A stretch of 64,000 nucleotides of DNA from contig JARDVH010000163.1 of the NCBI GenBank assembly GCA_030324005.1, forward strand, positions 105,294,764-105,358,763. Direction: 5' to 3'. Of the stretch, positions 25,920 to 62,760 are shown piece after piece. Both the position numbers and the translations under genes were made by a program. This stretch comes from Negaprion brevirostris (Eukaryota). Numbering within the stretch: position 1 is the first letter of the stretch; each line of letters begins with the position of its first letter. The notes below the pieces were generated by a model. That model was not told the origin of the DNA. It saw only the letters and a list, made by a program, of their open reading frames with translations, and did no database searches.

Positions 25920-26120
25920 GATGTGGAGATGCTGGCATTGGACTAGGGGAAACAGTAAGAAGTGTCAACACCAGGTTGAAGTCCAACAGGAGCTTGGTGC
26001 TCTTGTCAGACGAGCAAAGGTGAACTCACCTGATGGAGCAGAAGGTGCTCTGAAAGCTAGTGGATTTTGCTATCAAATAAACCTATTGGACTTCAACCTG
26101 GTGTTGAGAGGCTTCTTACA
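25920..26120. mobile_element. Same palindromic Penelope-derived family, degenerate hammerhead at ~26030-26060
   Basis: Head gatgtggagatgctggcattggact; inverted caacaccaggttgaagtccaa / ttggacttcaacctggtgttg. Confidence 0.75.
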
Positions 26121-27289
26121 GTATCATGGCTGAGCCAGACTGTTACTAAATAAGGGGGAAAGCCCTGGTCATCAAGCACATACAATACAGTTAGACAGAA
26201 ATGAGCAAGCTACACCAAGTTGTAAAATGGGTTCCATGTCAATGTACATCCCAGCAGACCTGATAATCTTGAATAAAAAGCACTGCAACCAACTTTAAGT
26301 ACTGATCATTCTTGAGCGCTAGAATTTTGCTTTGCTAATGACTTAATGGTNNNNNNNNNNNNNNNNNNNNNNNNNNNNNNNNNNNNNNNNNNNNNNNNNN
26401 NNNNNNNNNNNNNNNNNNNNNNNNNNNNNNNNNNNNNNNNNNNNNNNNNNTTTGTTGTGTTCTTAATATATTCAGGATATGCATCAAAGTGATTTAATCT
26501 CCTTTGCACCTGCCTCAAGTAATTAGCCAGAGTGTGTGAGCAAGAGACAGGAGGCAGCGTTCTACGAACTACCTTACAATATATGCCATGATCAAGTTTT
26601 ATAAAAATGAATTTAAGACAAACATTTAATGCATCAGAAGTTCTGTGCATTTATTGAATTGCCCTTTGTATGCTTCAGAAGTGGTGTTTACAATGACCTG
26701 GAGTTCAGTCTGAGCAAGCACAAGCGTCACCTGCATACTGGAACTCAACAATTGAAGTGATTTTGTTTCCTCCTATTTAAGGCTTGGACAATTTACAGCA
26801 GACACTTCAAAATACTGCAGTATCACCAGCAGCGAGATTGTAAGATCTTGCAAATCTGTTGGCAAGATAATGTTCCAACAACAGCCCTCCAAGCCAACAT
26901 GTCCAGCATTAAGGCATGTAACAGTTCTGTTGGACATGACATTCATATGCTGAGGCCACATTCCCCAAAAGCAACTACTCCACTCAACTTGCAGCAAAAA
27001 AACTTCCAGGAGGATAGTGGAGATGCTTTCAGAGATGTCCTCAAAGCATCAATGGTGGTTAAACATCCCCACTGACACATGGCAATCCCTAGAAAAGATT
27101 TATTTGGGACATGACAAAATGAGACTGTCAGGAACAAAGATGAAGTGAAGCTCCAAAGTGTGTACAAACTTCTCAACTCATCTACTCGACCATCTAAGCA
27201 CCAACTGCCCCACAGAGATGTACTATTACTATCTCAGAACCCATCAAATAATGGGAACAAGTCATACTTGATTCCCAAAGGACTCTTGC

Positions 27290-27483
27290 CTTATCAGGAT
27301 GGAAGGCACTTGATGCAGGTTGAATGGTGGCCATAAAAGGACTATCCACGATGTCGTCATCATCGCACAAAACATGCACTGCATATTCACCAGGTTCTGT
27401 TGGCCAGTAGCGTACATTACAGGAGCCATCACTCTGATCATCACATTCAATCTTGGCTTGAGAGGGACCCTCCACTGCAAAAC
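27290..27483 (-). CDS. FLNB: FLNB exon 12 (194 nt), [14 protein letters not shown]...FHPDK; non-canonical GC donor
   Basis: gcag acceptor; AAG|GCAAGA donor gives the expected length and phase 0. Confidence 0.9.
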
Positions 27484-27927
27484 CTGCAAAACAGAATAAT
27501 CTTTCAACATTTGTAGCTCAAATTCAAAACAAAGTTACAATTATCACTATCACAAAGAGAAGTGTTGAAGTTGCTTGCATGTTAAACAAAATTTGGTCCA
27601 TCTATAACTGGATGAGCTTGTCATTGTAGTCACTTTTCACTCAGCGTGATATTCCATTTTAACAAGCCAAATAAATGTATTTAACAATCCGAAGCTGTTT
27701 CACGCAGCACAAGTGCCTTCTAAAGCAAATTTGGTGAAATTTGTGAAGCCCGAAAGAGAGTGTGCAGTTGATGTAACATCTAGGTGCATGACAAGAACAT
27801 TCTGTAAATGGAGTTCTTGGGAACAAGTTAATCCTGCAACTCCAATATAGAAACACCAGTCTTGGTCTCAAATCATAACTGCTATCGTACTTAATGTAAA
27901 AACATTTTGCAAAACTAACAACTTTAC

Positions 27928-28064
27928 CTAGCACACCAACATCTGTCCCAATAGTTTCTACGACAAAGTCTGCCGACTTGCCAACAACTCCTCCATCAAG
28001 GCCAGGTCCCCAGGCTCGTATCTTTTGAATGCCTGCTTCAGGTCCAATCTGAATTTCAAAAGGA
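27928..28064 (-). CDS. FLNB: FLNB exon 11 (137 nt), SPFEIQIGPEAGIQKIRAWGPGL...VGVL
   Basis: ttag/gtaaag sites; hand-translated. Confidence 0.95.
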
Positions 28065-28362
28065 CTAATAGAAGGGAAAATGTGTGTGTTCAGGTTGAAA
28101 CCACTATCACAATATTCTCGTCATTTGCACTACACCAAAGGGTTTAGCATTGAATTTTGTTACATTTAGTGCATTAACAGTTAAGAATGATCTTACCAAC
28201 ATTTAAAGTGTAATTCATGTAAACACAACAGGAAATTGAAAAAATACAATGTTTCATACAAANNNNNNNNNNNNNNNNNNNNNNNNNNNNNNNNNNNNNN
28301 NNNNNNNNNNNNNNNNNNNNNNNNNNNNNNNNNNNNNNNNNNNNNNNNNNNNNNNNNNNNNN

Positions 28363-28462
28363 TCTCCATTCACCTGACGAAGAGGGTGTCCCCTCGAAAG
28401 CTTGTGAGTTTATTATCAAATAAATCGGTTGGACTAAAATCTGGTGTTGTCAGACTTACCAC
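28363..28462 (+). mobile_element. Same family, right arm; left part lost in N gap
   Basis: Hammerhead followed by caaataaa..gttggact..tctggtgttgtcagactt. Confidence 0.7.
28368..28409 (+). ncRNA. Minimal type I hammerhead ribozyme motif (Penelope-associated)
   Basis: AUUCAC-CUGACGA-A-GAGGG[UGUC]CCCUC-GAAA-GC-UU-GUGAGU: full core, stem I, stem II and palindromic AGCU stem III. Confidence 0.75.
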
Positions 28463-28859
28463 ATTGAAGAGTTCATAGTTACACAAACGGAAGCAAAGTC
28501 ACAATCATTTCAGGATGAATCAGGAACATTTTTTCTTGCCGAACAGTACATCTGTTACTCACTAAGGGAGAAGTTTCATTCAAAAATATCCCATAGCTTT
28601 AGTTTGGGATTGGGACAGGGGAAAGATCCAGATAGTTAGATGAAATGCACAATAGTTTTAAGGCTATATACAAAAAGTTACAACAGTGGATGAATAGAGG
28701 GGCCTGAGTTTTAAGCAGTTCACTTGTTTTAAAGAGTGGCTATAATGAGGGGAAATTTTCAAAGAAACAATTGATTTATTTTTGAACTAGAAATAAACTT
28801 AAAATTTGTTATCCTCATTTGAATGTATCAACTGAGCTTTGCAAGACAGACAAACTCAC

Positions 28860-28992
28860 CTCCTGGGAATGTTATGGCCACCCCAGGTGATAGTGACGAT
28901 GTGTTTTCCAGGTGTGACAGGGTAGTACTCATAGGAAATGGCATCCCCGCCATCCAAAAGATCTTTTTGTTTCACAGGCTGCTCCAACCCTT
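28860..28992 (-). CDS. FLNB: FLNB exon 10 (133 nt), KGLEQPVKQKDLLDGGDAISYEYYP...NIPR
   Basis: acag/gtgagt sites; 6 nt longer than the human exon as recalled. Confidence 0.93.
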
Positions 28993-29124
28993 CTGTCAAG
29001 GAGATATAACCAACAGACTGAGACATGCAAACAGAACTTGGATTAACCAAAGTTAATTGCATCAACGCAGTCTCTGCTACGTTAAACATAGATGCAGTGA
29101 CTACTTAGTGGAAAATGTTTACTG

Positions 29125-29545
29125 TTTGCACACATGACCAACTTTCCTGTTGCTTGCAATAGGAAAATGTTGGTCACGTGTGCAAATGGAGCAGTTTGCT
29201 CTCATGCCCACATCTGGTCCTTGACCTGCTGCAATGTTCCAGGTGAAGTCCAGTGCAAGCTGGAGGAGCAGCATCTCTTTTGATTGGGTACATTGCAGTC
29301 CTTGGGATTTGAGATCAAAACTTTAGATTCAAGACTCTTCTCCATCTTAAAACCCCTTTAAAAAATGACCCAACATGTATTGCCACAATTCAAACTATCC
29401 CCCTTCCACAGGAGACTTTTATTTGTAAAGTTGCAATCTCTTACAGCACTAACACATTCTCCCTCAAGAGTCAAAAGGACTCTAAACACTGACTCAGGTT
29501 TCTCTAATAGATGCTGTCAGACCTGCAGAGTTTTTCTAGCATCCT
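29125..29545 (+). mobile_element. Degraded Penelope-like element, GIY-YIG C-terminus plus pLTR-like segment
   Basis: Remnant peptides FPVAC, CSHAH, LLQCS, KLEEQHLF*LGTLQ. Confidence 0.6.
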
Positions 29546-30432
29546 CCGCTCTTGATAATTGTTTCAAGGCTCTTAGCAGGTAACTATAAAAAAGTAGTAA
29601 AGAGCAATATACAATTTTATGTGCCACAGGGGAAGCGTTAAGGTCACTGATGAAATCACATTTTAAATAAAGGGACTGGAAATTCAGTGTTAAAGATAAG
29701 GTTGTCTAGCAGCACAATTCATAAAATCCAATTTTAAAACTAACCTATCTACTACTTTATTGCTAGTGAAAGCAAATCTCACTTGATGCCCATATATATT
29801 GTTAATTCTGAGAAAGCAATACAACAATTAACAGGAAGTACATTTACAGAATATTAACATTCACAAACTTTAAAAATGGTGGAAAACAAAACTGCAAGTT
29901 TTAGATTTAGCAAAACATTTAATGAGGGTCTATTCACTAATTAACAGAACAAAAATTGAATTCAATGTCTCATTAATGACAGTCACATGGTCATGGACAA
30001 AGACCTCAACAATGCTAATCATGATGGCGTTACTCTTTTTGGCCCTTTGACCCCAGTGAACAAGGTAAGCACAAAACTGAAACAGTCTGGGATGTGTGGC
30101 AGAATCATAGACTTGATCATTCAAATGCTGGAAAATAGGATTAGAACTGTTGGCTGGTTTGTCTTTTAGTGCAGACGTGATGGGCTGAAGGGCTTTTTTG
30201 TGCTGTATACCTGACTTTATGACTCAACTTCAAATTGCTATTCCAAAGTTATAATAAAAGACAAGCAGTAGGGATCCTAGTCTGAGAGCAAACCTGTATT
30301 GCTGAAATGCTCGCTTAGTTCCCTCTTAGTTCATGTCTTGCTAGTTTTTTAAACTTGGGGAAAGAGGTTAAGAGGACAATTAACCAGGTTATTTGTTCCA
30401 ACAAAACCCATCCTTTCAGCAAAACAACTTAC

Positions 30433-30570
30433 TTGGTCCTTTCACCGTCACTTTCAGGTCACCACTTCCAGCCCCTTTAGTATGAACTTTAAAGTCAGCA
30501 ACTTGGCGAATTCTCAGTCCTTTAGGTTGTAGGCCACGCCCAGTAGCACGACAAGCATTGGGATTACAAG
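30433..30570 (-). CDS. FLNB: FLNB exon 9 (138 nt), [18 protein letters not shown]...VKGP
   Basis: ccag/gtaagt sites. Confidence 0.96.
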
Positions 30571-31795
30571 CTGGAACAGAAAGGAAAATTGAAGTTTCCA
30601 CTGAGTCCTGTAAAGTTGTGTTTCAGGCTAAGGGGAATGGGACAACAGAATAAAGTGAATAGACCCAGTGGAGATAAAATGGTACCAATTGTAACTGGCA
30701 AGTTTAAAGTTGACAATTCACAGAGAGGAAACCCTCAGTTACAAGTCACTGGAAGTACAAAGGGATATGTACCAACCAGAACAGACATCTGAGCAAGTTA
30801 ACATTACAGGGAATGCAAGGCACCATTGGCATTTCATTCCCAATTTTTTTGGGGCAGGGACAAAAAGAGCTGGAAACTTGGATCTGATACAGACACGGAA
30901 TTGGTTAATACCTTTGGCACTGGAATAAGTGCAATCTGGAAACCAAAACTTTGAGTTTGAAGTAAAGATTATTTTGCTATGTGCTATCAAATTAACTGGC
31001 TTGAAGTGTGTGACAATGGATTTTCTTTTCAGATCATTTGCTCAGAAATTGTTTATGCACACTCCAGATTAACCAATGCCAACTTCCTTTTGCAATAATG
31101 AAACACAAGTGTAAATGAAACAAACACTTCCTTTAGTTTCTAGCTACATTAAATGCCTTGAATTGGCATTGAAAGTAAATATTGAGCATGTTCAGAATAA
31201 ATCTTGATCAAGAAAGATATTTTGTAGACAAAAGGAACTGCAGAGTAGATACTGAACTGCATGAACAGATCACAAACTGCTAGAAACAGATAAGTTTGAC
31301 ATTGCTAATACATGAGGCAATCAAAACAAATCTCAACTAAAAAGGGCTTCACAGGATGTGTCTTTTCCTACAGATTAGGAATGACTTACTAGGCTATTTC
31401 AGAGCACAATTTAGAGTCAACTGCGTTGCTGAGCACCTGAAGTTGGCACAGGTAAGAATGGCAGATTGCCTCCTCCCCCACAAAGGGACAATAGCGAACC
31501 AGATGGGTTTACGATCAAAAGTCTAATCATTTTCTAGTTGCCATTATTGATGATAGCTTTACAATTCCAGATTTTTAAATTAGCATTTAAATTTCTTGCT
31601 GTTTGAGAGAGATTGCATTGTGTCTTCCCTTCCGCCTTATCTTTCATACTTCAGTGAATCTGAAAGATTTGTAGCAAGACTTCAAATGCTCATTGAAAGA
31701 TTTTCCCCAAAGAAAACATTAATCTTGAGCTTATGGGTTTTAAAACATGAAGAATGCAATCAGCACTTGTGCAGATGAGCAGACACATCACCCAC

Positions 31796-31993
31796 CTTCA
31801 CCTACAGCGACAGAATACGGGCTCTTGGGTATTGGCGATTCAGCAAATGCAATTTGGATTGTGTGGTGCCCTGCTTGCAAGGGTCTGTAACTGCACCGAT
31901 AATTATTGTTCCCCTTGTCTTCAATCGTTACTTCAGTATCAGTATTACCCTGAGGATCCACTATCACCACTTCAATATTGCCAACTCCAGCAC
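31796..31993 (-). CDS. FLNB: FLNB exon 8 (198 nt), GAGVGNIEVVIVDPQG...SVAVGE
   Basis: AAG acceptor, gtgggt donor; ORF 31788..31970. Confidence 0.94.
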
Positions 31994-32542
31994 CTTTTAA
32001 AAGACAAAAGAAAAGTAAGACTCTTTATACCAAAGGAGCTTTCATTCTGATTTTGACACTTAATTCCTTCAACTGTTATTTCAAAAACCTCAAAGCATTC
32101 AGATTAAATTGCTACAACAGTATTTTAACAAGCAGTGCTTGGCTACAAATCAAAGTTCAACACAAGTCAAACATGTCAAATATGGACTACCCAAATGCAA
32201 TATTAGAAATATCAGTTATAGCATGCTGTTATGCACAGTTGCCCCCAATGTGTAGTGCTAGCCAGCCTTCTAAAGGAAGCTCACCATAAAAATGCTAATG
32301 TGTGCGCTTTAAGTGATTTTAAATTCCAGCCATTTTAATAGGTAGCTACAATATATTCAAAATCTCTGGGTCACCTCAATTCAAGTAATTTAGCCTTCCA
32401 TATTAATACAATTTCTTCACATTCCTAACTGTAACATGCAATTTTACACCAATAACCAACACTAATATTTTGAAGAGCAATTTATATATAAAGAGGAAAC
32501 TTCTTATTTCCTCCCTTACCCACACAGAATTCAAAAGTATAC

Positions 32543-32705
32543 CTGCTGTATAAATATCAAAGTAGGTTGGCTTATTGGCAATGTTTCCGGCAGATTCCAA
32601 GCCAGGTCCTCGTGCCGTCACTTTACTGGCATCACCTTGGGCCTTGTCAATGTTGACTTCAAAAGGACTTTTGGATATGTGCTGTCCAGCAAATAAAACA
32701 GTTAC
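32543..32705 (-). CDS. FLNB: FLNB exon 7 (163 nt), [17 protein letters not shown]...DIYTA
   Basis: ccag/gtatac sites; ORF 32403..32720. Confidence 0.96.
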
Positions 32706-33151
32706 CTGGAGAGACACCATTATACGGCAAGGTCAGCCATTATAGAAACAAATGTCCAGTGGCAAAGAAGGACTTGAACTAGGAAATGCAACATCTTATA
32801 CTTTTATTAAAACATATTGTTTACTCCCACACCCTTCAGGGTTACAGACGTAGATTGAGTTTTTCTAAAGAGGATAAAAGTGTTCCTTATCAGACAGCAC
32901 TGGAATTTCAGATCCCTGGGCCATTAACATGATCACAATATTTCCACAGGGAAAAAAAAAAATCAAAGACATGCCCCAGCTCATATGGAACAGGACAGCA
33001 GAGTAACCTGGTTATTAAAATTTAAAAAATCATTTTAGAGCACAAATAGAAAAGCCTAGTAACACCTTGTAATCAGGGTGATGGCAAGATTCCTGCACCA
33101 AAATATTCCAAAAGAGATGGAACAATTTTGTAGTGAAATGTATATATTCAC

Positions 33152-33229
33152 CTTATGACATCCTGCAACCTTTGGTATATAAATCACCGAGTAAGTCTTG
33201 TTCTTGTCATGGTTATTGGTCACCTTTGC
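33152..33229 (-). CDS. FLNB: FLNB exon 6 (78 nt), AKVTNNHDKNKTYSVIYIPKVAGCHK
   Basis: ctag/gtgaat sites; in frame. Confidence 0.95.
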
Positions 33230-33939
33230 CTAGCAAGAATTTAAGAACATTAGAACCTTTGCAATGTATTCACTCATACAAAACCACTGATTATTTCACA
33301 AGAACACATTTCAGGCCAAGAACAACTCAACTTGTATGCAGCTGCAGAGCAATTATTTCCCTACATTAAGATCCAACACATAGTAACGAGAAAAATGGCA
33401 AGATAGCCTGTCTTTTTTGGGAGGCGTTTATTGGTTAAATACAAATACTGGCTATGTCACTGAGAAAGCCCCAGCTCAATTGTGCTGTAGTGTCTTGTAC
33501 ATCCATCTGAACAGGGAAATAGGACCTTGGTTTAAACATTAAGGAGTACTTAGTACTGCGCTGAAGATTCCACATCTGTCAAGTGGGGCTGGGACCTATT
33601 ATTGCGTTAGCGTAGCAAAATCAATTACAGTACGATGTAACAAACTATTGCTTAAAAACAATTTCAGCAACTATTCATATCTGTATGAAGTGATTGACCT
33701 TTTATATATTGATGCTGACAGATCATAGCAACAGTTACTGTTCAACTTAAAATAAAACAAAACTTCAGGCATGAAAGTTAAAATCTTACCAGCAGCATCT
33801 AATGAAAAGTAGGATCATATATGCAATTGCACCTTGGAACTTTAATTAAAAGATCTAGTCAAAATTAAGTGGTTCAGAATATAAACAGAACCTGAGTTTG
33901 ACTTCATTCTGAACCCAACAGATCTTTTAAATGAGAACA

Positions 33940-34765
33940 ATCTTGGGCCAGTGGGCTGACAAATGGCAGATGGAGTTTAAGTTACATAAACACAAGGTGA
34001 TGCATTTTGGTAGACTGAACCAGAGCAGGACTTACTCAGTTACTGGTAGGGTGTTGGAGAGCATTACAGAGCAAAGAGATCTAGGGATACAGGTTCATTG
34101 ACCTTGAAAGTGGAGTCGCAGGTAGACAGAGTGGTGAAGGCATTCAAGCAAGCTTGGTTTCATTGGTCCAAACATTGACTACAGGAGTTGGGGTGTCTTG
34201 AAGTTGTACAAGACATCGATATGGCCACACTTGGAATACTGTGTGCAGTTCTGGTCACCCTATTATAGAAATGATATTAAACTAGAAACAGTGCAGAAAA
34301 GATTTACCAGGATGCTACTGGGATTTGGTTTGAGTTACAAGGAGGGGCTGGGACTTTTTCCTCTGAAGCATAGAAGGCTGAGGGATAATCTTATGAGATC
34401 TATAAAATGAGGGGCATAGATCCATTAGATAGTCAACATCTTGTCCCAAAAGTAGGAGTCTGAAACTAGAGGGCATAAGTTTAAGGAGACAGGGGAGCTA
34501 CACAAAAGGGTCCAGAGGATGCAATTTTTTTTTCCCCCCCACAGGGTGGTGAGTGCCTGGAACAAGCTGCCAAAAGGCAGTAGAGATGGGTAAAATTATG
34601 TCTTTTAAAAACCATTTAGACAGTTACATGGGTATGATTGGTATAAATGGGATATGGGCCAAATGCAAGCAAATGGGAATAGCTTAGGGGGTCTAACAAA
34701 AAGGGCAGCATACACAAGTTGGGCAAAAGGGCCTGTTTCCATGCTGTAAATGAAGATTCTTAGAA
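33940..34765 (+). mobile_element. CR1-group LINE (HER1-like) 3' fragment
   Basis: WADKWQMEF, VMHFG, PHLEYCVQFWSP, VQKRFTRML; 3' tail gggcctgtttccatgctgta. Confidence 0.85.
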
Positions 34766-36040
34766 TCAGAGGTTATCTACATTCACAAGGTACCTCACAA
34801 GAGGCTATTGCAGAAGGTAAGGGGGCNNNNNNNNNNNNNNNNNNNNNNNNNNNNNNNNNNNNNNNNNNNNNNNNNNNNNNNNNNNNNNNNNNNNNNNNNN
34901 NNNNNNNNNNNNNNNNNNNNNNNNNNNNNNNNNNNNNNNNNNNNNNNNNNNNNNNNNNNNNNNNNNNNNNNNNNNNNNNNNNNNNNNNNNNNNNNNNNNN
35001 NNNNNNNNNNNNNNNNNNNNNNNNNNNNNNNNNNNNNNNNNNNNNNNNNNNNNNNNNNNNNNNNNNNNNNNNNNNNNNNNNNNNNNNNNNNNNNNNNNNN
35101 NNNNNNNNNNNNNNNNNNNNNNNNNNNNNNNNNNNNNNNNNNNNNNNNNNNNNNNNNNNNNNNNNNNNNNNNNNNNNNNNNNNNNNNNNNNNNNNNNNNN
35201 NNNNNNNNNNNNNNNNNNNNNNNNNNNNNNNNNNNNNNNNNNNNNNNNNNNNNNNNNNNNNNNNNNNNNNNNNNNNNNNNNNNNNNNNNNNNNNNNNNNN
35301 NNNNNNNNNNNNNNNNNNNNNNNNNNNNNNNNNNNNNNNNNNNNNNNNNNNNNNNNNNNNNNNNNNNNNNNNNNNNNNNNNNNNNNNNNNNNNNNNNNNN
35401 NNNNNNNNNNNNNNNNNNNNNNNNNNNNNNNNNNNNNNNNNNNNNNNNNNNNNNNNNNNNNNNNNNNNNNNNNNNNNNNNNNNNNNNNNNNNNNNNNNNN
35501 NNNNNNNNNNNNNNNNNNNNNNNNNNNNNNNNNNNNNNNNNNNNNNNNNNNNNNNNNNNNNNNNNNNNNNNNNNNNNNNNNNNNNNNNNNNTTATAATAT
35601 TTGAGACATGTTCATTAGCCTGCTACAGAATTCACTTAAACCCAAGTACCCATTGATAACAAGAATGTTCAATACAGTCAGAGAGCTAGCAGGAATTTAA
35701 GAACATTTGCAACAATTTCTGGTCAAGATAAATAATAATTGGAAAGCCTTAGAACACCTCCAGGCTGGGAGCAGGCAAAATAAATCTGTCATTTATCTCT
35801 ATGCCTCAGGTAGTTTGCTGGAAGTGAGGTGTGGTAATACAATGAGGAAAAGCGAGATAAGATTTGGTGCTATGACAGACTTAGAACGCAGAAAAACTAC
35901 AGCACAAACAGGCCCTTCAGCCCACAAGTTGTGCTGATCATATCCCTTCCTATAGCTCTCAATCCTATTAAAGCCTTGTGCTATCATTTTACTTTCTACC
36001 AAAGTGTAATATTTAGAATACAAATACAAAGTTAAATTAC

Positions 36041-36159
36041 CTCCTCTCGCTGATTTTCTGGGTCATCCACAAAGACCATCACCTCACCTTGCCCAGCACT
36101 GATTGTTTCAACAGTGAATTTAGCAGGATGCATCACAACATTACCCAAAGGCTCAATTC
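36041..36159 (-). CDS. FLNB: FLNB exon 5 (119 nt), GIEPLGNVVMHPAKFTVETISAGQGEV...
   Basis: gtag/gtaatt sites; in frame. Confidence 0.95.
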
Positions 36160-36311
36160 CTACAAAATAAAAAGTGCAAGTGAAATATTTCAGTAATCGA
36201 TGCAAGCCAGGAATTGCCCCAGCTAACTTCTGAGCACAACCTGAAGGGAGGTTTTGGACTCAGATACGAGGTACAGATGGCAAGATACTTCAAATTCAGC
36301 TGGAGACTTAC

Positions 36312-36644: not shown

Positions 36645-36950
36645 GAGTCAGTCCCTACTGTGCAGGAGGCAGCCATTTGACCCATCAAGCCTGCACCAAT
36701 AACAATCCAAGCCCAGACCCTAGCCCTGTAACCCCATGTATTTATTCTGCCGATTCCCCAACACCAAGGCACTTTAGCATGGCCAGTCAACCTAATCCGC
36801 ACATTTTTGAAGTATTGGAGGAATACTTGAATTACCTGAAAGAAACCAAGGCAGACACAGCAAAAGTGTGAAAACTCCACACAGACAATTACTCAAGGCT
36901 AGAATTGAACTCAGGTCCCTGGTGCTGAGGTAGTACTAACTACTGTGCCA
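36645..36950 (-). mobile_element. HE1-like tRNA-SINE
   Basis: Same head, body and tail motifs. Confidence 0.72.
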
Positions 36951-45095: not shown

Positions 45096-45967
45096 CAGAA
45101 AGATCAGATTTCAAAACAGAGTACAAGAGTTATCTGGATTGATTCAGTTGATGAGTAGCAAGCTTTTCATACTCATACAGCTTACTACAGGGCAAGATTG
45201 TCAGATGCTAAGAGATCAACTGTCTGGATTACAGAGCTCCAGACATATTCTAGCTTTACAACAAGCTTGGTTTTTATCCAATTTATCAGTATTTTATTGC
45301 ACAGGAGCACTTATCTAGCTCAGTCCTTGAACTGGTGAACATGCAACTTGAAGTGTAAACGTTGTGATTTGGAGAGGACTGCAGCATCAGGATAAAAATA
45401 CTTTGGCAGATGTTAAGGTCATTTTGATGGTTTGGCATTCAGCCATAGACTACTTTCTGACACCCAGTTATTGCGACTACACTAAAACAGACAAAAGCCA
45501 AAATCAAAACACCAATTACATTTGGTAGCACTTAATGGGCATGGCTGTGTTATTAAATGCAAAAAAGCCACAACTAGCATTGGGTATGCACCCAGTCCAG
45601 TAATGTCAAAAAAGAAAGTTAGCATTCCTTTCATCTGTCTATTGTTCCGCTTGGGGTTCATTGCATTAAATTAAAGTAGTTCGATTTCAGTTTGCTCATG
45701 CACCAACTGACATTTTAGCATAAAGTATTCACTTGTTTCTGCCACTAAAAGCTTCATTTTGTCTGGTAGTGGGAATGCAATCAGTAACACCAAACTCACA
45801 TCAAGAACAGATCCAGAATCACTCCTATGGACTAAGATATTTAAGAACCTCAATCCATGATAATTGGAACAGAGGATGTCATTTTCCAAAAATGACAACG
45901 TTACACAAAGGCCATTTTCCCCAAAGATCAAGACATTGTATGCTTTTCTGCTGTCCAAATTCAGACA

Positions 45968-46248
45968 GAAGTCTCACAACACCAGGTTAAAAGTCCAACG
46001 GGTTTATTTGGTAGTAAACCCCACTAACTTTGTGCGCTGCTCCTTCATCAGGTGAGTGGGGAGTTCTGATCACAGACAGGGCATATAAAGGCACAGTTTA
46101 CAGAATACTGATTAGAATGCTCACCTGACGAAGGAGCAGTGCTCCGAAAGCTAGCAGGGTTTACTACCAAATAAACCCGTTGGACTTTAACCTGATGTTG
46201 AGATTTCTTACTGTGTTTACCCCAATCCCAAGCTGGCATCTCCACATG
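45968..46248. mobile_element. Palindromic non-autonomous Penelope-like element (inverted pseudo-LTR arms with hammerhead motifs)
   Basis: Arms ~45968-46056 and ~46119-46209 are inverted copies; terminal gcatctccacat shared with other copies. Confidence 0.75.
46121..46155 (+). ncRNA. Hammerhead ribozyme motif, core intact, stem I weakened
   Basis: CUGACGA-A-GGAGC[AGU]GCUCC-GAAA-GC-UA. Confidence 0.6.
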
Positions 46249-47567
46249 ACGTTCAAATTTAGCCATGAAGCCCCATTAATTTTTGGCTGAACTCAGTCAG
46301 GCGGCACTTAATGTTTAAAGTTGCCTAGATATAGCAAGGCTTTCCATAAGGAGGCTTTGACAAGAGGTCACTGCTTCAAGTAGTCAGCATTGCCCAAAAT
46401 CTCCACTTGTATTTCTTAAGCTCTCAAATAGTTTCCCAAACCTGGTACATAAAACACAGCTGAATGTTACTTTGCAAAGCTGCTCCTGATATAATGTGAT
46501 ACTTACTGCAAACACAACTTATTTCAAATAACTGAAAGATAAGTTTCCTCCAACATCCCATCAAAACAAACAAATGTTGAGACAAAATCTTCATGACATC
46601 CGGAATCAAATATTTCTGGTGACCAATTGATTTTGTAAACAAAATGGTTAAAAGTCTCACTTAACAGTCAATGGGAAAAGCTCCATTGGGTTAAATGTTT
46701 AACCCAAGCAAGCATCACATCAAAAGAAAGCTATTTAAATTCTCAGTATGGTCTGCAATGACAGTGCTTACATGGCTCTTCATCCCTACAAAGTTGGTGG
46801 ACCTTAAGCCCGTGCACTCCCACGTACTGAAATATTTATAGATCAAGTACTGAAAACAGCTCCCACAATAGGATTTTGACAATGACAGTGATACATGTCC
46901 AAATCAAGATGAGGCTTGAGGCAATGGCAATGCATCTGCTGCCTTTGGTTTTCAAGGTTTTGACTGGGAGGTGCCAGAAGACCTGTGGTGACTATATATT
47001 GATTACAGATTGGATAACAGTAAATTTAGAACACATGTAGAGTCATTGGGACTAAAACAGCAGGTGTATAATTTAACACTAGGGTTTGAAACTACAATTG
47101 CATACATAGATTTCTCTAGTTTTGCTGCAAAATACCTACAAATGCAGATGACAGATTGGTCTGGTTTTAAGAAAATGGCTGTTCTCAAAATACATCACTG
47201 CACTTGGGCAAACTCCAAGAACTTCTGTTGCAATATTGCCACTCCCTCCCCTTGCTCTGGCTGCATGGTAGAGGAGACATTTCACAGCAATTTTGGGAGT
47301 AGTTAGGTTTGACATTATTGCACCAGGACAGAAAAAAGGTCAAAGTTTATTTTAGATGCCTAGGTTGAAGTGGCACCATGAAGCAATTCAATGTATTTTA
47401 GGGATAATAGTTCTCAAATAATAGCTCAGTACAGTATTGGCAGTTTTCAGTGGAATCAAGAGGCAAATGCAGACAAATGTGGAGAAATGGGAAGATGAAA
47501 AGTCAACATCAATTTCCACAAAGTGTACCTATACACTGATTTAGACGAGGGGACTCAAATGTTAAAT

Positions 47568-47860
47568 CAGAATCCTAAAGTATAGAAGGTGGCTGTTCTG
47601 TCCATCAAGTCTACAACTTGCTAACAGAGCATCTTTCCCATGCCTACCCACTCCTTACACCCCATCCTGTAACTCCACATATTTGCCCCTCACTTAAACA
47701 ATCTGGACACCAAGGGGCAATTTAGCATGGCCAATCTAATCTGAGGTGGGTATGCTGGCGTTGGACTGGGGTAAACACAGTAAAAAGTCTGACAACACCA
47801 GGTTTTAAACCTGGTGTTGTCAGACTTTTTACAATCTAATCTGCACATCTTTGGACCAGA
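47568..47860 (-). mobile_element. Partial HE1-like SINE hosting the palindromic insertion
   Basis: aaggggcaatttagcatggccaatc...ctgcacatctttggac split by the insert. Confidence 0.68.
47744..47832. mobile_element. Same family, internally deleted perfect palindrome inserted in a SINE
   Basis: 26-bp perfect arms 47780-47832; 12-bp flanking direct repeat. Confidence 0.75.
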
Positions 47861-48524: not shown

Positions 48525-48927
48525 GTAGAATTCCTACAGTGTAGAAGGATGCAATTTGGTGAGTCTGCAGTGACTCCAACAAAGCATCCCACCAAGACCC
48601 TATCCCTATAACCCCATGCATTTAACCTGCTAATCCCCCTAACTTACACATTTTGGGGCACTAAGGGGCAATTTAACATGATTAATCCACCTAAACTGCA
48701 CATCTTTGGACTGTGGGAGGGAAACCGAGCACCTGAAGGAAACCCACAGACTCAGAACCCATTGCTGAAATCANNNNNNNNNNNNNNNNNNNNNNNNNNN
48801 NNNNNNNNNNNNNNNNNNNNNNNNNNNNNNNNNNNNNNNNNNNNNNNNNNNNNNNNNNNNNNNNNNNNNNNNNAATCAAACTTGGGTCCATGGTGCTGTG
48901 AGGCAGTAGTGATAATCACTGTGCCAC
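48525..48927 (-). mobile_element. HE1-like tRNA-SINE spanning a gap
   Basis: Tail, body and head motifs present. Confidence 0.72.
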
Positions 48928-53467: not shown

Positions 53468-53745
53468 ACAGTTTAATGTCACAAGTAGGCTTACATTAAC
53501 ATTCCAATGAAGTTGCTGTGAAAATCCCATACTTGTCACACTCTAGCACCTGTTTGGGTACACTGAGGAAGAATTTAGCATGGCCAATGCATCTAACCAG
53601 CATATCCTTTGGACTGCAGGAGGAAACCAGGCCATCTGGAGGAAACCCACAGACATGGAGAGAACGTGCAGACTTTCCAGACAGAGATCCAAGCTGGGAA
53701 TTGAACACAGATCCCTGGCAGTCTGTGCAGCCCCACCTATACCAC
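53468..53745 (-). mobile_element. tRNA-SINE, alternative-tail type
   Basis: acaagtaggcttacattaaca..gaaaatccc tail; shared body. Confidence 0.7.
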
Positions 53746-54169
53746 TAACTTATGCTAGAAATCAGATGATTAGAGAACCAAAAGTAGTGCAAGTTAGAAA
53801 CATTCAGTAGCTTTTAAAGGAAAGGCTTGGATTGTAGAATGGAATACTACAACTTAAAATCATTCATTCCAAACAAAAACCCATCTTCAACCAATTATAC
53901 ACTATACAATGAACACAAACCACAAAAGGCAAAAATTTTGCCTTCAAATCCAGATGTTAGGCAGTGTTTGTATTCAAAGTTAAGCAAAATGGGTTTGAAT
54001 GGATGAGCTAATGATTGACAGCATAGCCCTGACATTTCCAAATAATTGTTTATCAGAAGCTGCAGTCATTATACAAAATTTGCCTTGTGTGTATACATCT
54101 TCTGCTCAAATATTTGAACAATGCCAGCTGTCTTTTTAGATAGATCATGGGCAGATTAAAATAACCAGG

Positions 54170-54320
54170 ACTGACAGCATCTGCTCAGAGAACAGAACTA
54201 ACATTGAGTCTGGATGATTCAGCTGTGGCTCTCCTCTCCCCACAGATGCTGTTAGACCTGTGGAGATTTTCCAGCATTTGTTTTATTTCAGAGTCCAGCA
54301 TCCACAAATATTTGCTTTTT
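54170..54320. repeat. Penelope-associated short inverted-repeat remnant
   Basis: gacagcatctg / cagatgctgtt and ccagcatt..ttttatttcaga..ccagcatcc..tttgctttt; similar to 29500-29545. Confidence 0.45.
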
Positions 54321-57300
54321 AATTAGGCATTGCTGGAGCAATGAAATCTTTTATTTGCACAGCACAAATCCATATTACAGACCTACAAAGAGACACCAGT
54401 TACTGAGCAGCAATAGAATTAAACATTAGCTAGAAACTAAACCATTTAGACATTAAAAGTGAATTGCAGAAGGAAGCAACCAAGACAATGAACTACATAC
54501 AATTTCTTTTGGACAGGTAGTGGATTTAACGGAGTGAAAATTTTCAGTCTTGGATCAAAAATACTTCAGTGCTGCATCAGGCTGCAGCACACATTGCACT
54601 GAGCACAACTTATGCATCAAGTGCAAACTAGAGCGTGTTTGAATTTTTAGGAATCATACTTTTTTCATGTGCCTTCACCTTAAATGTTCTCTTCCCTAGT
54701 GCACATTTTATAAACACCAGGATGCAAGCAAGCTGGAGATTCCAGATTTGTTAATGGTACATTCTAAAAAGGACTCAAACATGAATGAGAGTTCTCTTAA
54801 CATAAGTATTGAATTTGATGTTTTCCCCAGGAATCTTAGCTATAAAGATGTTCCTGTATTAAGAGGTGAGTGAAAGAATCTAGCCATTTTGCACCAGAAT
54901 TAAAAATGATAAACTAAGGGTTATACAGCTTCACCATGATTGATGTGCAAGACTACACAGGAAAGATGGTCGTAAAAATATTTAAGCCAAAGTGTTTAAG
55001 ACCATCTGCAACTTTTCAACAAATCAAGTGTCCAATTCAGATCTTGCACAATGCATTCTGCATGCTAGTCAATCTGCAATGGATCTTTTAGGACTCTTTT
55101 GGAACACCCATGATACTTACTCTAGCTTGGCAACTGGAAGAATTCAACACCAACATGTTATTAACCAAGTCTTTTGGTACATTTATCTTTCCAATGCTCA
55201 AAACATGAGGACTTTAGAACAGGTACACATTATACTGGTTGCAGAAATTCAGATTTTTAAGGAGGTACAAATGCAAGGTTATTGCAGCTTGAATTGACAG
55301 TTATTCCATTAAAGTTTAATGCAAGACTATTTGATTTAATAAGTCATGTGCTGCCCTCAAACATGCAGTTGCCAAGTATTAAATTGAAATTTGCAATTTT
55401 TGCCCACAAGTACTACACATCTAAAACAAATGGCATTATACAAAGCTTAATCCATTTTAAACACCAAAACATGTTTAAAAAATTGCAGATATTAAAAGTT
55501 CCCTCCAATGGGCATAACACATTTGGGTCTTTATTGGGTCAGGTGCATGTAGTTGCAAAGTGTAAAAACTCACAATATAGCTTCTTGGAGCTGTATGCCA
55601 AGATGGCAAAAGTCAGCACAGGACAAACTCGCAATTCACACAGATGTGTGATAAATAACTATAACAAAGCAGTCAATGTAGGTGTTAACTGCTATGCAAA
55701 GAACGATGGAAGAAAATAGTACCCAAGTAGTGTGTCAATACTTTTTTCCCCCTCCAGAGAACTTGGAGTCACACAGCTGAAGATCAACTGAATTTTAGAT
55801 TTAAATCCTCAGGCAAATACAGCAATGAATCTGACTACATTGGGGTACCATTCACATACACACAGGGCAGGGTAGGTGTAGGAAAATGCTTTGTTGAAGG
55901 GGCAGCGTGGGCTTGTTGGGCCGAAGGGCCTGTTTCCCACGCTGGGTTGTTCTTTGTTAAGTTGGATTAAGCATTTTAATAAAACCCAGAGACCTGGATT
56001 GGGAGCAGAGATTTTTAAAACCCCCCCTCCAAATACCTGGAGACAGTCAAAATGCCGGTCTCATCAAGCTGACTCCTAACATGTAACCAGTGACAGCAAT
56101 GGTTTCTGGACTTAATAGTAATGAAAGGAGCCTCCCCTTCAAACACACAGGAAGGTCATTAGTTACCAGAGACCACAGAAGTCTGGACATAAAATGCCAT
56201 TGTAGAAGTTCATAGCAGCCAAAAATATCAGTGATTTAGTCCTAAAGTCTTCAAGTATATAAAAGAATGAAAAAATTGTACAACCTTTATGAACTGAAAA
56301 TTCTACAACCTGAGTATTTTACTTAATATATTTCACTGTTCCTTCTCTGGAAGTTTTTCTACAAAACAGAAAACCACGGATCACACTGACTAAATTACAC
56401 CAACTACAGTAATCCCTTTGATACAACCTTCCCTGGGCAAGACCAGTCGTTCATTTCTCAAAATAAACATACCTATTAATCATTCATTTAAAGGAGCTTT
56501 GTTCTAATAGGGGAATGAGAGAATTATTATTACAAGGAAAGTTTCAACAGCATCAACTGGTGTAACTTTTCCCTCTTATCTGAATATACAGCATGGGTGG
56601 AGTGGAAGAGGCAAGTTACTTCCTGAAATAGGAAACACTAGTATGTTTTAAACCAGCCACACCTCGACAAGCCTTGAATGTCAGCAGGTTTGTTTTCGAC
56701 AGCAATGATGCAAGAAGGTCACAATGCACGCCAAGTCTTGATGTATTAAGTCTCATGCAGAACCAATGTGGCTTTCAACAAGAAAGTCGAAATTCAGAGA
56801 GAGTGTAGCTGGTCACAACTTCAGCACGTTTTAAAAAAAAACAGCCTTTACCAGCAAGTGGAACTTCAAGTGCAGAAACTAATTTTCAGAGTGCACTATG
56901 GTGACACATCAGAATGTTGACAACAACAATAAAACCCACATTTTGCCACCAAGGAATGAACAGCATATCCTGCCAAATATTTTACCATCATGTTTAATTT
57001 TGAATATATAACAAAACACACAAACATAGCCCTAATTCAACATTACTTTAAAATGAACTTGAGTTAGAGAGAAAGAAAATCCAGAAAAAAAGGTGGAAGT
57101 TGCTATGCAAGTTGCCAGGGCTTGATCTTAGCACGTAACATTACTGCCAGCCATTCAACAAAAGCAGCTGTGAGTGAAGCTCTTTGTACCTAGCTAAATG
57201 CATTCCATGCTGATGAAATCACTTTTCCTGCAAGTGGGATGAAAGCTCAGGTCACCAAGAGCAGACGCTTAATCCAACTGCTTGCAATTTGTCCTCCATC

Positions 57301-58764
57301 CATGGATTTCAGAATCCTTAGCTGCAAGAAGAGTTGAACTCTACCATGGATTCATTCACTACAGACTGTTGATAGGAAAGCATCCAAGAGATTGGATCAA
57401 AAAAAATTTAAAAAGGATACACAGCCTAAGACCAAATTCACATAAGCAGTTAGTTAGAAGGAGCAAGTGGTTTGTATTTTGCCTTAGGGGGTGCGAAGAT
57501 GCTCAAGGAGTGTGGAGGTCTTGTATACATGAAAGATGCTCACCAATGAGGTTGTTTGTATGTATGTGGGGAAGAAAGCACAGGAGGAGAGATTAAATGA
57601 TGCAAAAGTATGAGAATTTATTCGAGGATAATAATTTTAGCAGGAAATATTGCACACACTGGAGCCACAGTAGGAGAGAAAGAACAGAAGCAAGCATAGG
57701 GACATGTCAGATCAGGGTAAAGCCTCAATACCCATTTAAGTATCACATTTGGAGATGGCAAAGGATTATGTAGTAGAGCACAAAATAGGTCATAGTTCAA
57801 AATGCTGTTAATGCTCCATCCATCATCTCAGCCTTTCAGTACATCTTATTCCCATTTCTCTTTTGTCTTTGTTTAAAATGTTCCTTCTAGGACAGAGTAT
57901 TTTATGTTCTATCCACTCATGGAAAGGCATTTCTACATGTCCTATTAAGGAAATAATTAAAAGCCCCAAACAATTCACTCTTCCAATGGGTGTAATTTGT
58001 TTTGCATCAGTCCTTCCAATTTTGTTTGCCACTGCATAGCTCTGGTGTCCATAATGTAAAAAAAAGACAAAGCACTGGAGAGTTAATTGAATTATCAGGC
58101 TGCACAAAAATCAATACTTTTGAATTCTACATCCTTAAATGAACTGTAATGTTGATAACTGACTTGCAATACAGGTTTTAAATCTGTATTCAGAGATCCA
58201 TTTGTTCTTTTATCCCAGTCTCAAGTTGGAGGTGATGTTTCTATTTTGCCCTACCAATGGACATAACTTCAGTTCATTTGACACATCACTGCTCATTATG
58301 AGTTTCTAATTTCTTCTGCCATTGTGTTGTCTTTGCCCATGTCAACTACAGCAATATCTATGCCCCCAGACCCTAGCAGCACCCTACATGAGCATTAGTG
58401 GCAGGTGGGTTGAGACAGTTTATGGAGAGGCTTGAAGTAAGCAGTCTACACTGGTGTGAATGGAAGCTCAATTAAGGTTCCAATAAAGATACCAAGGTTA
58501 CAAATAGTCTGCTTCATATTTTACATGAAATATAGGGACCCAAAGTAATAGCTACAGTTCAATATTTAACTGAAAATGGTTGTTTAATCATGATTGGATA
58601 TTAGACAGAAGCAGTGGACGAGTTGGAAAAGTGAAAACTTGGAAGCTTCTGATGTCTGGATGATGTTACTGCAGAGCATCATTAATCATAGAACTCCTTC
58701 ACTGAAGGAACAGGCCATCAAATTTGCACCAACTCTGCACAGCAGCATCCCACCCACTCCCTGC

Positions 58765-58995
58765 ATGGTGGCACAATGATTAGCACAAATCTAGGTTTGA
58801 TTTCCAGCTTGCACATTCTCCTCGTGTCTGTGGGTTTCTTATGGGTGCTCCAGTTTCCTCCCACAATCTGAAGAATGTGCTGGCCAGGTGCCTCAATCGT
58901 GCTAAATTCTCCTTTGGTGTACCCAAACAGGCAAATTGTGACGACTAGGGGATTTTCATAATAACTTCATTGCAGCATTAAGGCAAGCCTACTTG
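58765..58995 (+). mobile_element. tRNA-SINE, alternative-tail type
   Basis: atggtggcacaatgattagcac head; gactaggggatttt..aagcctacttgtgact tail. Confidence 0.68.
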
Positions 58996-60296
58996 TGACT
59001 AGTAAACAAACTTCAACCCTTGCACATTTATTATGGCTAATCCACCTAATCTACACATCTTTGGACAAAAGGACAATTTCAGCTCCTTGAAGAGCATGTT
59101 GATAGTGGTGGAAGCAATCACTACTGGAGTTGCTCAGACCACAACTGGATAGACAAGAAGGGAATCAAAGACAACCCCACTCAATTGGAGAACTGTAGGA
59201 GCATTGAAAGATGTGGTTGATCTGTTAAAGGCTGCAGACAAGGAGAGAAACTGCACTGTTAGAGGATGCAATTTGTAACTGGTTAGAGTGGTTTCAATAT
59301 ATGGTCAGGACAGAGATTCAAACATACTTGTAGGAAAGATAAGTGGTTTTAGAAGCTGGCTACTTAATTTCCCTATCCTCATCACCTACTGCTTCATCTA
59401 AAATAGCTTAGTATCTCAACACACCACAACAGCATCCTATGAATCTACAGGGATACTCTTATGGTTTTTGAATCAGGCCCATCATCTGCAAAGCCCAATA
59501 TTCAACCTGCATTACTTTCTGGGAATTCATTGAAATATCTACACACTTCAGGATGATTTATAATCAAGACAACTTGATAACTCAAACAAAAGCAAGCCGT
59601 AAACAGCCTATCCAGAAATATACATGTTAATACCATCAAGTTGGAACTTGTTCTATGGCTGGCTAATTAAAATAAATGTTACTAGTTTAATGTTCACCAA
59701 TATAATTATATGAATCAGTCTTGATTTAGTATTCAATGAAGGAAGCAAACAAGACATGTGCAAGACCTTGAAAGATTGGTCAGGAGCAAGAATTCAACCC
59801 AGGTAGATGTAATCCAGATTCTATTAAAAAATAGTTGAAAAGGTACTTAGGATCTAGTATAAGAATTGATCAGAAAGGCAGCAGCTCCGATTACACTACT
59901 GAGATGAATTTTTACAGCTATTCATCAAGTGGGAATTCAGAAATTACTTTTACCGGTATTTGCCACTGGTGGAAAATACACAAAGATACTAATCAAGTTT
60001 AGGGTAATTACTTAGTGCCACTGACAACCACATTTTTGTAGTTAGTAATTCTGCTCAAAAGGGGTAGTTAACTTTAAACTACTCAAGTCAAGAAGGCACG
60101 TGGGGCATGTATTAACATTCCAAAGAGTTACTACCTCAGCAGACTGACGGCCAATTCTCTGCACTACTCATCCACATTTGCATGTCTNNNNNNNNNNNNN
60201 NNNNNNNNNNNNNNNNNNNNNNNNNNNNNNNNNNNNNNNNNNNNNNNNNNNNNNNNNNNNNNNNNNNNNNNNNNNNNNNNNNNNNNNNNNNNNNNN

Positions 60297-60530
60297 CCAA
60301 TATTTCTTGCCCATCCCTAGTTGCCTTTGAGGTGGTGGTAGCGAGCTGCCTTCCTGAACTTCTGCAGTCCACACAGTGTAGGTACAACCACAGTGCTGTT
60401 AGGAGGGAAGTCTAAGATTTTAACACAGTGATGTTAGTTCCATCAGGATGACACATGGCTTGCAGTGGTGTGCCCATGCATCTGCTTCCTTTGTCCTTCT
60501 AGACAGTAGAGGTTGTGGCTTTGAGGTGTT
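60297..60530 (-). mobile_element. Same LINE family 3' end, inverted
   Basis: gcccatccctagttgcctttgaggtggtgg..ttctgcagtcc..acagtgctgttaggagggaa. Confidence 0.55.
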
Positions 60531-61925
60531 GGAGTATCAGCCATCAGATAACTAAAGATCAAATGTGAACACAAGCTCTCAAATCGCAATGCAAGTGCGA
60601 CAAGGCTGTAACACCAGGCTAGTTGGTATTTAAGGGTCTTACCAAGATTAGACAATAGCTAGAAACTAATCTCAATTTATGCAGAATGGAAATACTAAAT
60701 TCTAGATTATACTAAATGGAAGTTAGACAATTAAATTGCAGTTCTAAAAGAGACTTCCAAAGCACATTTTGCCCCAAGCAGTGACTGGAGTCATTCTACC
60801 ATAATTCTATAAATTGCTAATCTCAGCTGCATTTAAACTTCCATCCTGGATAGTTCAGGGAGAGGAGAGGAAAGGTGGCATTTCTGCAATAAGTAACTGG
60901 AAATTCAGAGTGCTTGCTTAGTTAAGAATACTGCATGTAGTGTGTCCTGAAGGAACCATTCTTGAACTATACTTTAATGAACGATCAAAGTTGGATTCTT
61001 ATCTTCTGCATTATACAAAAGCAGGCTTGAAGTTAAGTATTGCAAGTCACCAACCCATACCCATTACTCAGTCTATCAAATTTCATTGCATTACTCATTT
61101 TTCCCCAATCCATCACAAAAGATTTCAAAATGCTCAAAAAGGCAGCTATTTAAGGGTTATGGGGAATTAAGGACAAGGGAAGAGCTTTCAAGTGCTTGCG
61201 TTTTCAGCTATTGATAAAGGGTCTTAATGTGAAAAGTGTTGTGACAATGTTTACTTTTCCAACATCTCGTTGTCACTATGCAATAGTGGGTGAATGGGCA
61301 TTTAAATACAGCACAATCTTTGAACTTGAAGGTTCCCCTCAAGCAGACTATAGCTTGCAGTACAATGAACCACAACTTGAATTGTGGAGGACAGGACATC
61401 ACTGCAATGGAGCCACACATGTCAGCTTGCAGGCTCAGACAAACCAGTCCCTGCCACCAGGAATGCTGGGAAGGGGTAGAGTGTCATGTGAAGTTCCAGA
61501 ATCTGGTTCTCACTGCCATTTTCACGCCTCCATGGATTTTCTGAAACACAGCCCAGAAGGATAATGTCACCCTAAAAAGATTACTTGAGTTTAAAAACAC
61601 ATTCATCTAACTTAAAATTGAATAAGTTACATCTGGACTATTTTTAGATGAATGCAAGTTAACTCAAGGCAGCTAGAAACTGAACCATGGATGTTGCTGT
61701 GAAAACAATTATGCACATTGAAATTAGGTATGAAGTGTCAGTCCCATCCAGCACACCTTTACCCCCAATATACTAGCAGTATTGACTTGTCCAGTTGCTC
61801 AATTTCACAATTTAGTGATGTTTACTTAACTGTTGGTCTTTATTTTTATTCCAATTCAAATCAAGTCCAATTCAGAGTCTTATACATTTTAGCTTAATTT
61901 GAAGCAACTTTTTATTTTAAAAGTG

Positions 61926-61958
61926 GCATCTCGGCCTTTTGGCTAAGATGCAAGTGAG
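61926..61958 (+). pseudogene. U2 snRNA 5' fragment (about nt 4-36)
   Basis: 21-nt exact match TCTCGGCCTTTTGGCTAAGAT to U2 nt 7-27, then g-CAAGTG. Confidence 0.8.
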
Positions 61959-61980
61959 ATCAAGCCTTGGAGGATGTGCA

Positions 61981-62263
61981 ATGCCTATTCCAATCAGCTT
62001 GGGTCATGTAGATCAAAGCCCAAGACAGGTGATAAGAGCCCTGTCTTGTCACCTTGGATCAGGAGTGTCTCAATTTGTTGAAACTCTGAATTGGAATAAA
62101 AACAATCCAATCAGGTCAAGTCCAATCCAGACTCTCAACAAGTGAGACATTCCTGATCCAAGTTGATAGGTCATGATGTGGGTATGCTGGCGTTGATAAG
62201 ACAGGATTCTCACCTCCTGTCTTGAGCTTGACCTACATGATCCAAGCTGACTGGAGTAGGCAT
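61981..62263. repeat. Long imperfect inverted repeat (~115-bp arms) directly downstream of the U2 fragment
   Basis: Left arm 61981-62095 aligns to the reverse complement of 62121-62263 (roughly 85% by eye, 30-nt insertion in right arm). Confidence 0.85.
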
Positions 62264-62587
62264 AGCTCCTCAAAACTGTTGGTCTCTGAAATGGATGAAA
62301 TCTGGGAGGACCCACTCGAAGCAGATTTAAATGACAGATTGATAAGTAAAGTTGTGTTATCTGATTGTTTAGATAAAGATACCTTTGGTTTGGCTTTCAT
62401 TTAAGTACTGCAAGTGATTTATCTACACCATTCAGCCCCTTTTCTAATTGTAGAAAATCTCACTAAATTGTTCAGTATAAACAATAAGTAATTGGTTACA
62501 ATTTGGAGGCCCAATTGGGTGTACACTCATCTTTCCACTTCAATGCAAGGGTTGTGCAACATTTATGATAATTGTCAAAGATCAGCA

Positions 62588-62760
62588 AGTCACAATGCCA
62601 GGTTAAAGTCCAACAGGTTTATTTGGCAGCACAAGCTTTTGGAATCTCAGGCTCCAGCCCAAAACTCCAAAAGCTTATGCTGCCACAAACCTGTTGGACT
62701 TTAACCTGGCAGTGAGACACCTTACTGTGTTTACCCTTGTCCAACACTAGTATCTCCACA
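62588..62760. mobile_element. Same family, palindromic copy lacking ribozyme cores
   Basis: gccaggttaaagtccaacaggttt / aaacctgttggactttaacctggc; ends in tatctccaca. Confidence 0.75.

Follow-up and report, generated by a model that had tools for sequence, protein, structure and literature searches.

The stretch of DNA analysed here (the window, 64,000 nucleotides of the shark Negaprion brevirostris, assembly GCA_030324005.1, contig JARDVH010000163.1, positions 105,294,764 to 105,358,763 of the forward strand) contains a family of short, mostly palindromic repeats which carry hammerhead ribozyme motifs and resemble Penelope-like elements (PLEs), and the question that it raises is whether such palindromes are copied as units or are built at each insertion. 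An earlier interpretation, the sequence-only reading, took the family to be a hairpin retroelement that lacks an open reading frame (ORF), bears a ribozyme and is mobilised in trans. The evidence presented below points to a different answer: with a probability that we put at about two in three, the loci are dead-end integration products of endonuclease-bearing PLEs, in which each palindrome was built at insertion and was not copied as a hairpin unit.

The five loci reported at the outset are all present at the positions claimed for them, and the arm sequence that they share is real: a 22-mer has six matches at one to three mismatches (none exact) and none in 100 shuffles. A profile built from eight arms, when run over the whole window, recovers nine arms at the five loci with E-values from 5e-38 to 2e-5, while its next match has an E-value of 0.33 and its best match in the reversed window one of 0.1; the same search places no copy in the first 25.9 kb. 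Four loci (A, C, D and E) are indeed inverted pairs, and the fifth, B, starts at a gap of 100 N. Over the 62,240 bases of the window that are not N, the five copies amount to about one per 12.4 kb, close to the one per 13 kb estimated previously, and a sixth fragment, F, had been missed. The loci are as follows (coordinates are those of the window).

25920-26121, unstranded: copy A, a palindromic insertion with an antisense left arm (tail at 25920-25954) and a sense right arm from 26024 that has the broken core CUGAUGG.
25991-26023, in the antisense arm: the scrambled stem II region of the inner left arm of copy A.
28363-28459, plus strand: copy B, a sense arm without tail, its left part lost in the N gap at 28263-28362.
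45967-46250, unstranded: copy C, the longest palindrome, with an antisense tail-less left arm and a sense right arm with its tail at 46212-46250.
46075-46108: the unpaired spacer of copy C, about 34 nt, which contains TATAAA at 46084.
47744-47832, unstranded: copy D, without a ribozyme, made up of a tail at 47744-47779 and a perfect 26-bp inverted pair.
62169-62191, minus strand: copy F, 23 bp, a tail alone.
62583-62760, unstranded: copy E, a palindrome whose arms start at stem II and lack the 5' core box, with a sense right arm that has its tail at 62726-62758.

These loci, which we take to be of a type that is typical of shark genomes, range from 23 to 284 bp, and at least three sequence variants can be told apart among them (A and C; B, D and F; E). 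Arms at the same locus have a mean identity of 0.87 (4 pairs), compared with 0.74 for arms at different loci (32 pairs), so both arms of a palindrome are likely to derive from one source. In copy A the scrambled segment is a patchwork of sense and antisense stem II pieces with a deletion, which suggests template switching or local inversion at the stem-loop. No locus has arms in tandem on the same strand, as judged from the profile search of the window.

Every arm represents the same non-coding segment, in which, on the ribozyme strand, an optional upstream part is followed by the hammerhead, an AATAAA, the arm motif and the end. This segment has two fixed outer ends, since five of the ten arms stop at +55 to +60 from the predicted cleavage site and the other five reach +91 to +97. 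The extension that distinguishes the two classes, 33-39 nt long, is the PLE 3' tail, and it is the same sequence, reversed, that had previously been described as a terminal head; the recurrence of that head stands (it is found in A, C, D and E, and also in F), but its role as a 5' head does not, because on the ribozyme strand it is a 3' extension. The tail is present on one side only in all four complete palindromes, whose arms are joined head to head at their 5' ends. The point of joining is different in each of the four: about -33 in A, -45/-78 in C (where the 34-nt spacer intervenes) and +35 in D, while E is joined at the 5' edge of stem II. The inner ends of the left arm of C (about -45) and of E (the stem II edge) were set by eye, and the computed values of -78 and -15/-13 depend on gap placement. 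The predicted cleavage site is spanned by six arms, and none of the ten starts there. A start of the arms precisely at stem I was considered and given up in the case of C, in which the pairing of the fold extends 11 nt farther upstream.

Two small features of the tail may be recorded beside this anatomy. In C (46246-46250) and in F (62170-62176) an ATG stands just inside the end of the tail, and it may by analogy be the start codon of the parent ORF, since tail and ORF start overlap in other PLEs (PMC2377424, PMC3846280; here and below, statements about cited papers refer to the accessible parts of each). An AG dinucleotide, a splice acceptor candidate, is kept in two of four tails in an alignment compared by eye.

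The ribozyme itself is less well preserved than had been supposed. Three copies were said to retain the CUGANGA...GAAA motifs, and just two arms, B and the right arm of C, keep both core boxes: the 5' box is changed to CUGAUGG in A and missing from D and E, and in the left arm of C GAAA has lost its G (G12). A descriptor search of both strands for the two core boxes with a stem II of at least 3 bp finds four sites, two of which are these family members, and the full minimal-hammerhead descriptor is satisfied by B alone (one match in the window, none in 100 simulated windows). The minimal type I hammerhead of the terminal repeat is thus complete in B and partial in A and C.

28368-28409, plus strand: the only complete minimal type I hammerhead (copy B), with a 6-bp stem I, CUGACGA, an extra A, a 5-bp stem II and GAAA.
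46120-46158, plus strand: the hammerhead of the right arm of copy C, intact in its two core boxes and in stem II, with two mismatches that break stem I.

The fold of B has the layout of a PLE minimal hammerhead, with an extra base after A9, a G10.1-C11.1 pair, and a palindromic AGCU in place of stem III, and cleavage is predicted after position 28403. The compensatory variation reported for stem II is borne out: GAGGG/CCCUC in B corresponds to GGAGC/GCUCC in C, all five pairs hold in each, and three of the five are changed on both sides. Between B and C, identity is 11/11 in the core, 4/13 in stem II and 37/50 in the downstream arm. Across four arms the core is kept at 42 of 44 positions and stem II at 36 of 52 (p 0.0008), in a test that is biased because B and C were noticed through their cores. 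The compensatory stem II changes show that the ribozyme was under selection in the source elements, while these copies show no sign of its upkeep. Rfam matched no hammerhead family, either in the whole window at E-values up to 10 or with B alone, and its weak microRNA-type hairpin matches at D and E, which lie below the gathering score, were discarded as generic.

The palindromic context would further impede the ribozyme. In predicted folding, the stem II pairs of copy C have probabilities of 0.95-0.97 in the arm alone and 0.00 in the whole element. Whichever strand of a palindrome is transcribed, the antisense arm comes out first, and it is predicted to mask the ribozyme in palindrome transcripts, abolishing stem II. 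Cleavage as a dimer, which had been invoked for these ribozymes, needs two same-sense copies, and the two arms in the transcript of an inverted pair are of opposite sense.

The same observations bear on the suggestion that an ORF-less hairpin is mobilised as a unit. That suggestion finds no support in a set of palindromes whose four centres all differ, which comprises at least three variants and in which most ribozymes are broken, or in copy F, which is a tail alone with a target duplication of its own. A weaker version, in which a PLE protein, acting in trans, makes full copies of some palindromes from their transcripts and so gives small families with fixed centres, is unlikely, although it has several points in its favour. 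Every palindrome offers, on either strand, a sense arm with a fixed PLE end; PLE proteins mobilise in trans sequences bounded by pseudo-long terminal repeats (pLTRs) (PMC3846280); copy C has a TATA-like box 41 nt ahead of the core; and with at least three variants, differing centres are compatible with separate families. Set against this, the centres differ even between A and C, which have a common stem II type, F has no second arm, the ribozyme core is absent from D and E, and a reverse transcriptase (RT) would have to traverse the hairpin of copy C, which folds at about -142 kcal/mol (z -13).

The flanking sequences indicate that these loci are insertions. Short direct repeats of 7-15 bp flank all five loci at which both flanks are readable (A, C, D, E and F), with an empirical p of at most 0.019 for each locus when 1379 random flank pairs serve as the null; for two control palindromes, unrelated to the family, the p values are 0.50 and 0.09.

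25910-25921 and 26122-26133, plus strand: duplication of A, 11/12 identical, empirical p 0.002.
45953-45967 and 46251-46265, plus strand: duplication of C, 12/15 identical, empirical p 0.008.
47732-47743 and 47832-47843, plus strand: duplication of D, 12/12 identical, a score reached by none of the 1379 null pairs.
62576-62582 and 62759-62765: duplication of E, 7/7 identical, p 0.019.
62162-62168 and 62192-62198: duplication of F, 7/7 identical, with a score that includes bases of the host palindrome.

Two of the loci have empty-site support. Copy D is inserted in another repeat, the other copies of which hold the target once, and copy F lies in one arm of an unrelated palindrome, that arm being 30 bp longer than its partner. 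The host of D (47686-47856) belongs to a dispersed family that resembles short interspersed elements, with further members at 9459-9728, 24855-24948, 36761-36950, 48636-48926, 53471-53674 and 58810-59066. The host of F, which has F in its right arm, is a palindrome of about 300 bp (61973-62271) whose arms are about 82% alike; it shows no clear target duplication, and part of its centre recurs at 61840-61880. Directly before it, at 61923-61955, about 30 nt match the 5' end of U2 small nuclear RNA (E 0.055, below the gathering score), and this segment may, from its sequence, be the end of a U2-derived or U2-targeted retroelement.

Short ORF-less insertions with inverted arms and a duplicated target also recall miniature inverted-repeat transposable elements (MITEs), that is, DNA transposons with terminal inverted repeats, in which case the match to the ribozyme would be incidental. 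This is very improbable. The ends are asymmetric, with a one-sided tail in four of four; the duplications vary from 7 to 15 bp and the sizes from 23 to 284 bp, where fixed duplications and uniform sizes would be expected; a tail-only copy is present; and a full minimal hammerhead with three two-sided stem II changes is beyond chance.

The Penelope origin and the minimal hammerhead of the earlier proposal are, by contrast with its hairpin unit, supported by anatomy, since the form of the ribozyme, the one-sided tail, the inverted 5'-truncated arm and the target duplications agree with published descriptions (PMC4209133, PMC3846280, PMC8557442). The assignment to PLEs rests on this anatomy and is likely, as the loci show the four features of truncated endonuclease-bearing PLEs that were tested. 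By analogy with the PLE protein of the anole, PAc (Poseidon of Anolis carolinensis), the RT-endonuclease would nick both target strands 7-15 bp apart, and each nick would prime a complementary DNA (cDNA) on uncleaved PLE RNA, the two starting at opposite ends of the tail. Both cDNAs would stop after about 20-175 nt, their ends would be joined, and repair would leave a palindrome with a one-sided tail and a target duplication, while a single cDNA that halted at once could leave a tail-only scar such as F. The use of uncleaved RNA as template leads to the expectation that arms span the cleavage site and that none begins at it, as is seen. The hammerhead would then have come along as part of the pseudo-LTR, kept by selection in the source elements and now in decay.

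Several points weigh against this reading. An RT or GIY-YIG match by Pfam is found in none of the 128 stop-to-stop frames of at least 72 amino acids in the window, an absence which is expected because the copies are truncated. Conservation of the core (42/44) does not significantly exceed that of the downstream arm (184/208, p 0.13). Four palindromes are few, and the rest of the genome could hold a separate fixed-centre family for each of them; later central deletion of longer palindromes could also make centres vary. Finally, the centres of A, D and E, three of the four, lie within 2 nt of symmetric, for which P is about 3e-4 under independent uniform truncation, a value to be read in the light of a symmetry criterion that was chosen post hoc and of the scrambled left arm of A. 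If the symmetry is taken at face value, two independent truncations are insufficient, and concerted synthesis or a fold-back step is needed.

A fold-back could operate on one cDNA, which stops early, folds and is copied toward its start, the second arm being ended by the endonuclease or by a stall at the tail boundary. Beyond the near-symmetric centres, it has on its side the perfect 26-bp pair of D, which is centred on a TTTAAA palindrome, the greater length of the tailed arm of C if the TATAAA of the spacer reads in the right-arm sense, and the attribution of the tail in PMC8557442 to endonuclease resolution of an intermediate. However, E holds stem II twice, where folding on stem II would leave one; neither microhomology nor a loop is seen by eye at the centres of A and E; and a second RT start site seen in vitro (PMC11167929) explains the fixed tail-less end more simply. 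Fold-back is accordingly judged a little less probable even than the copying of fixed-centre hairpin families.

Construction from two nicks can be extended further, in a form that we hold tentatively and think more apt to fail than to stand. The palindromes would be a high-copy fossil record of PLE integration, in which synthesis of the two cDNAs by a dimeric RT proceeds in lockstep, from two nicks and two tail-bounding starts, until both stall at the same point (often the edge of a ribozyme stem) and are joined, and some of the resulting hairpins might be re-copied as small antisense-locked families that feed small RNAs against the parent element.

The window spans part of a vertebrate filamin gene, and all of the loci A-F are intronic in it. 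In a Pfam search of the window frames, filamin-repeat exons lie at about 5.8-32.7 kb and a calponin-homology exon lies near 40 kb; the latter matches filamin B and A chains.

5763-40338, minus strand: filamin gene exons (filamin repeats and the calponin-homology exon), from Pfam matches.

The calponin-homology exon corresponds to filamin B from about residue 100 onward, and the motif of the first exon was not found in six frames of the window, so that the region from 40.2 to 64 kb is likely to be intron 1. The GC content of the window is about 38%, and CpG is depleted to 0.15 of expectation. The best-kept ribozyme cores (28374, 46125 and 26030, plus strand) are antisense to the filamin transcript. 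An intact core is present in none of the four readable left arms, which are sense in the pre-mRNA, numbers that are too small to separate selection from chance. Other repeats in the window are a short palindrome at 29125-29186 (21-nt arms, 90% complementary, no family match and no significant duplication) and two more dispersed families, at 23467-23733 and 60302-60535, and at 7793-7855, 18857-18913, 34690-34750 and 55892-55948, with copies 72-86% alike.

Minimal hammerheads in PLEs, inverted truncated copies and one-sided tails have all been published, and in this respect the finding is mostly ordinary. Its value lies in number: a genome with one scar per 10-13 kb would provide a very large sample of junctions with which to separate double priming from fold-back, and formation de novo from hairpin families. 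If near-symmetric centres hold genome-wide, the integration step could be settled, and if the lockstep form of integration is true, the mechanism could be read straight from the positions of centres, tails and duplications across this genome. In addition, such palindromes can be mistaken by annotators for MITEs or microRNA precursors, and the masking predicted here would make them an example of how an intronic ribozyme can leave the host transcript uncut.

Full-text literature searches found no paper on this particular family, which may already be catalogued in repeat libraries, since these lay outside the search. The arm sequence motifs have no match in the accessible paper texts or in the accessible supplements of PMC8557442, PMC4209133 and PMC11167929, and no shark entry was found in the accessible supplementary lists of PMC4209133. 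In prokaryotic collections, plasmid sequences gave no match to the repeats and GTDB genomes none with one pattern; a second 20-nt pattern gave three GTDB matches, all ending within 4 nt of the pattern, which were taken as chance.

Among known systems, the animal non-LTR retrozymes, which occur in a chondrichthyan among others (PMC7229834; bioRxiv 10.64898/2026.07.22.740005), are similar in that they are ORF-less, carry a type I hammerhead and are related to PLE pseudo-LTRs. They consist, however, of head-to-tail tandem repeats with a ribozyme in each unit, whereas the loci described here are single or joined head to head, and few of them have an intact ribozyme. A closer parallel is PAc, whose protein, a predicted dimer, nicks and extends both target strands and begins reverse transcription, on unprocessed RNA, at two internal sites, one at each boundary of the tail (PMC11167929). 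As in PAc, where the template is uncleaved, the ribozyme is followed by about 55-60 nt and then by a tail bounded by two fixed ends; unlike PAc, in which the ORF starts at stem II, the arms have no frame that is open and common to them, and no ORF from stem II was found.

The ribozyme agrees with the minimal hammerheads of metazoan PLEs (PMC4209133) in having no helix III, a palindromic 15.2-16.2 segment (AGCU), an extra base between A9 and G10.1, a G10.1-C11.1 pair, a short helix I, and compensatory stem II variants, and in the occurrence of opposite-strand pairs about 100 bp apart, although stem II is 5 bp here and 7-8 bp in the Schistosoma motifs. In that study minimal hammerheads are reported on opposite strands at distances of 100-700 bp, and most motifs are solitary and probably derive from truncated PLEs.

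The closest correspondence is with PLE insertions that have inverted pLTRs. PMC8557442 describes frequent 5' truncation, an inverted 5'-truncated copy beside the 5' end and a tail of 30-40 bp, often at one end. In Pen2a_Av of Adineta vaga the adjacent inverted pLTR is 37 bp shorter than the direct one, one pLTR has a 31-bp tail, the duplications are 8-10 bp and the pLTR contains a TATA box (PMC3846280), and in Penelope of Drosophila virilis the inverted repeats vary in size and the ORF start carries a 34-bp repeat (PMC2377424). The origin of the inverted repeats and tails of PLEs is still called unresolved in PMC8557442 and PMC11167929. The shark loci differ from these insertions in that both sides are cut to 25-175 nt with no ORF between them and in that the duplications are 7-15 bp, and they share with them, in a comparison made by anatomy alone, an inverted arm that is shorter than the other and joined to it at the 5' end, a one-sided tail of 30-40 bp, a target duplication of about 10 bp, a TATA-like box and a hammerhead in the repeat.

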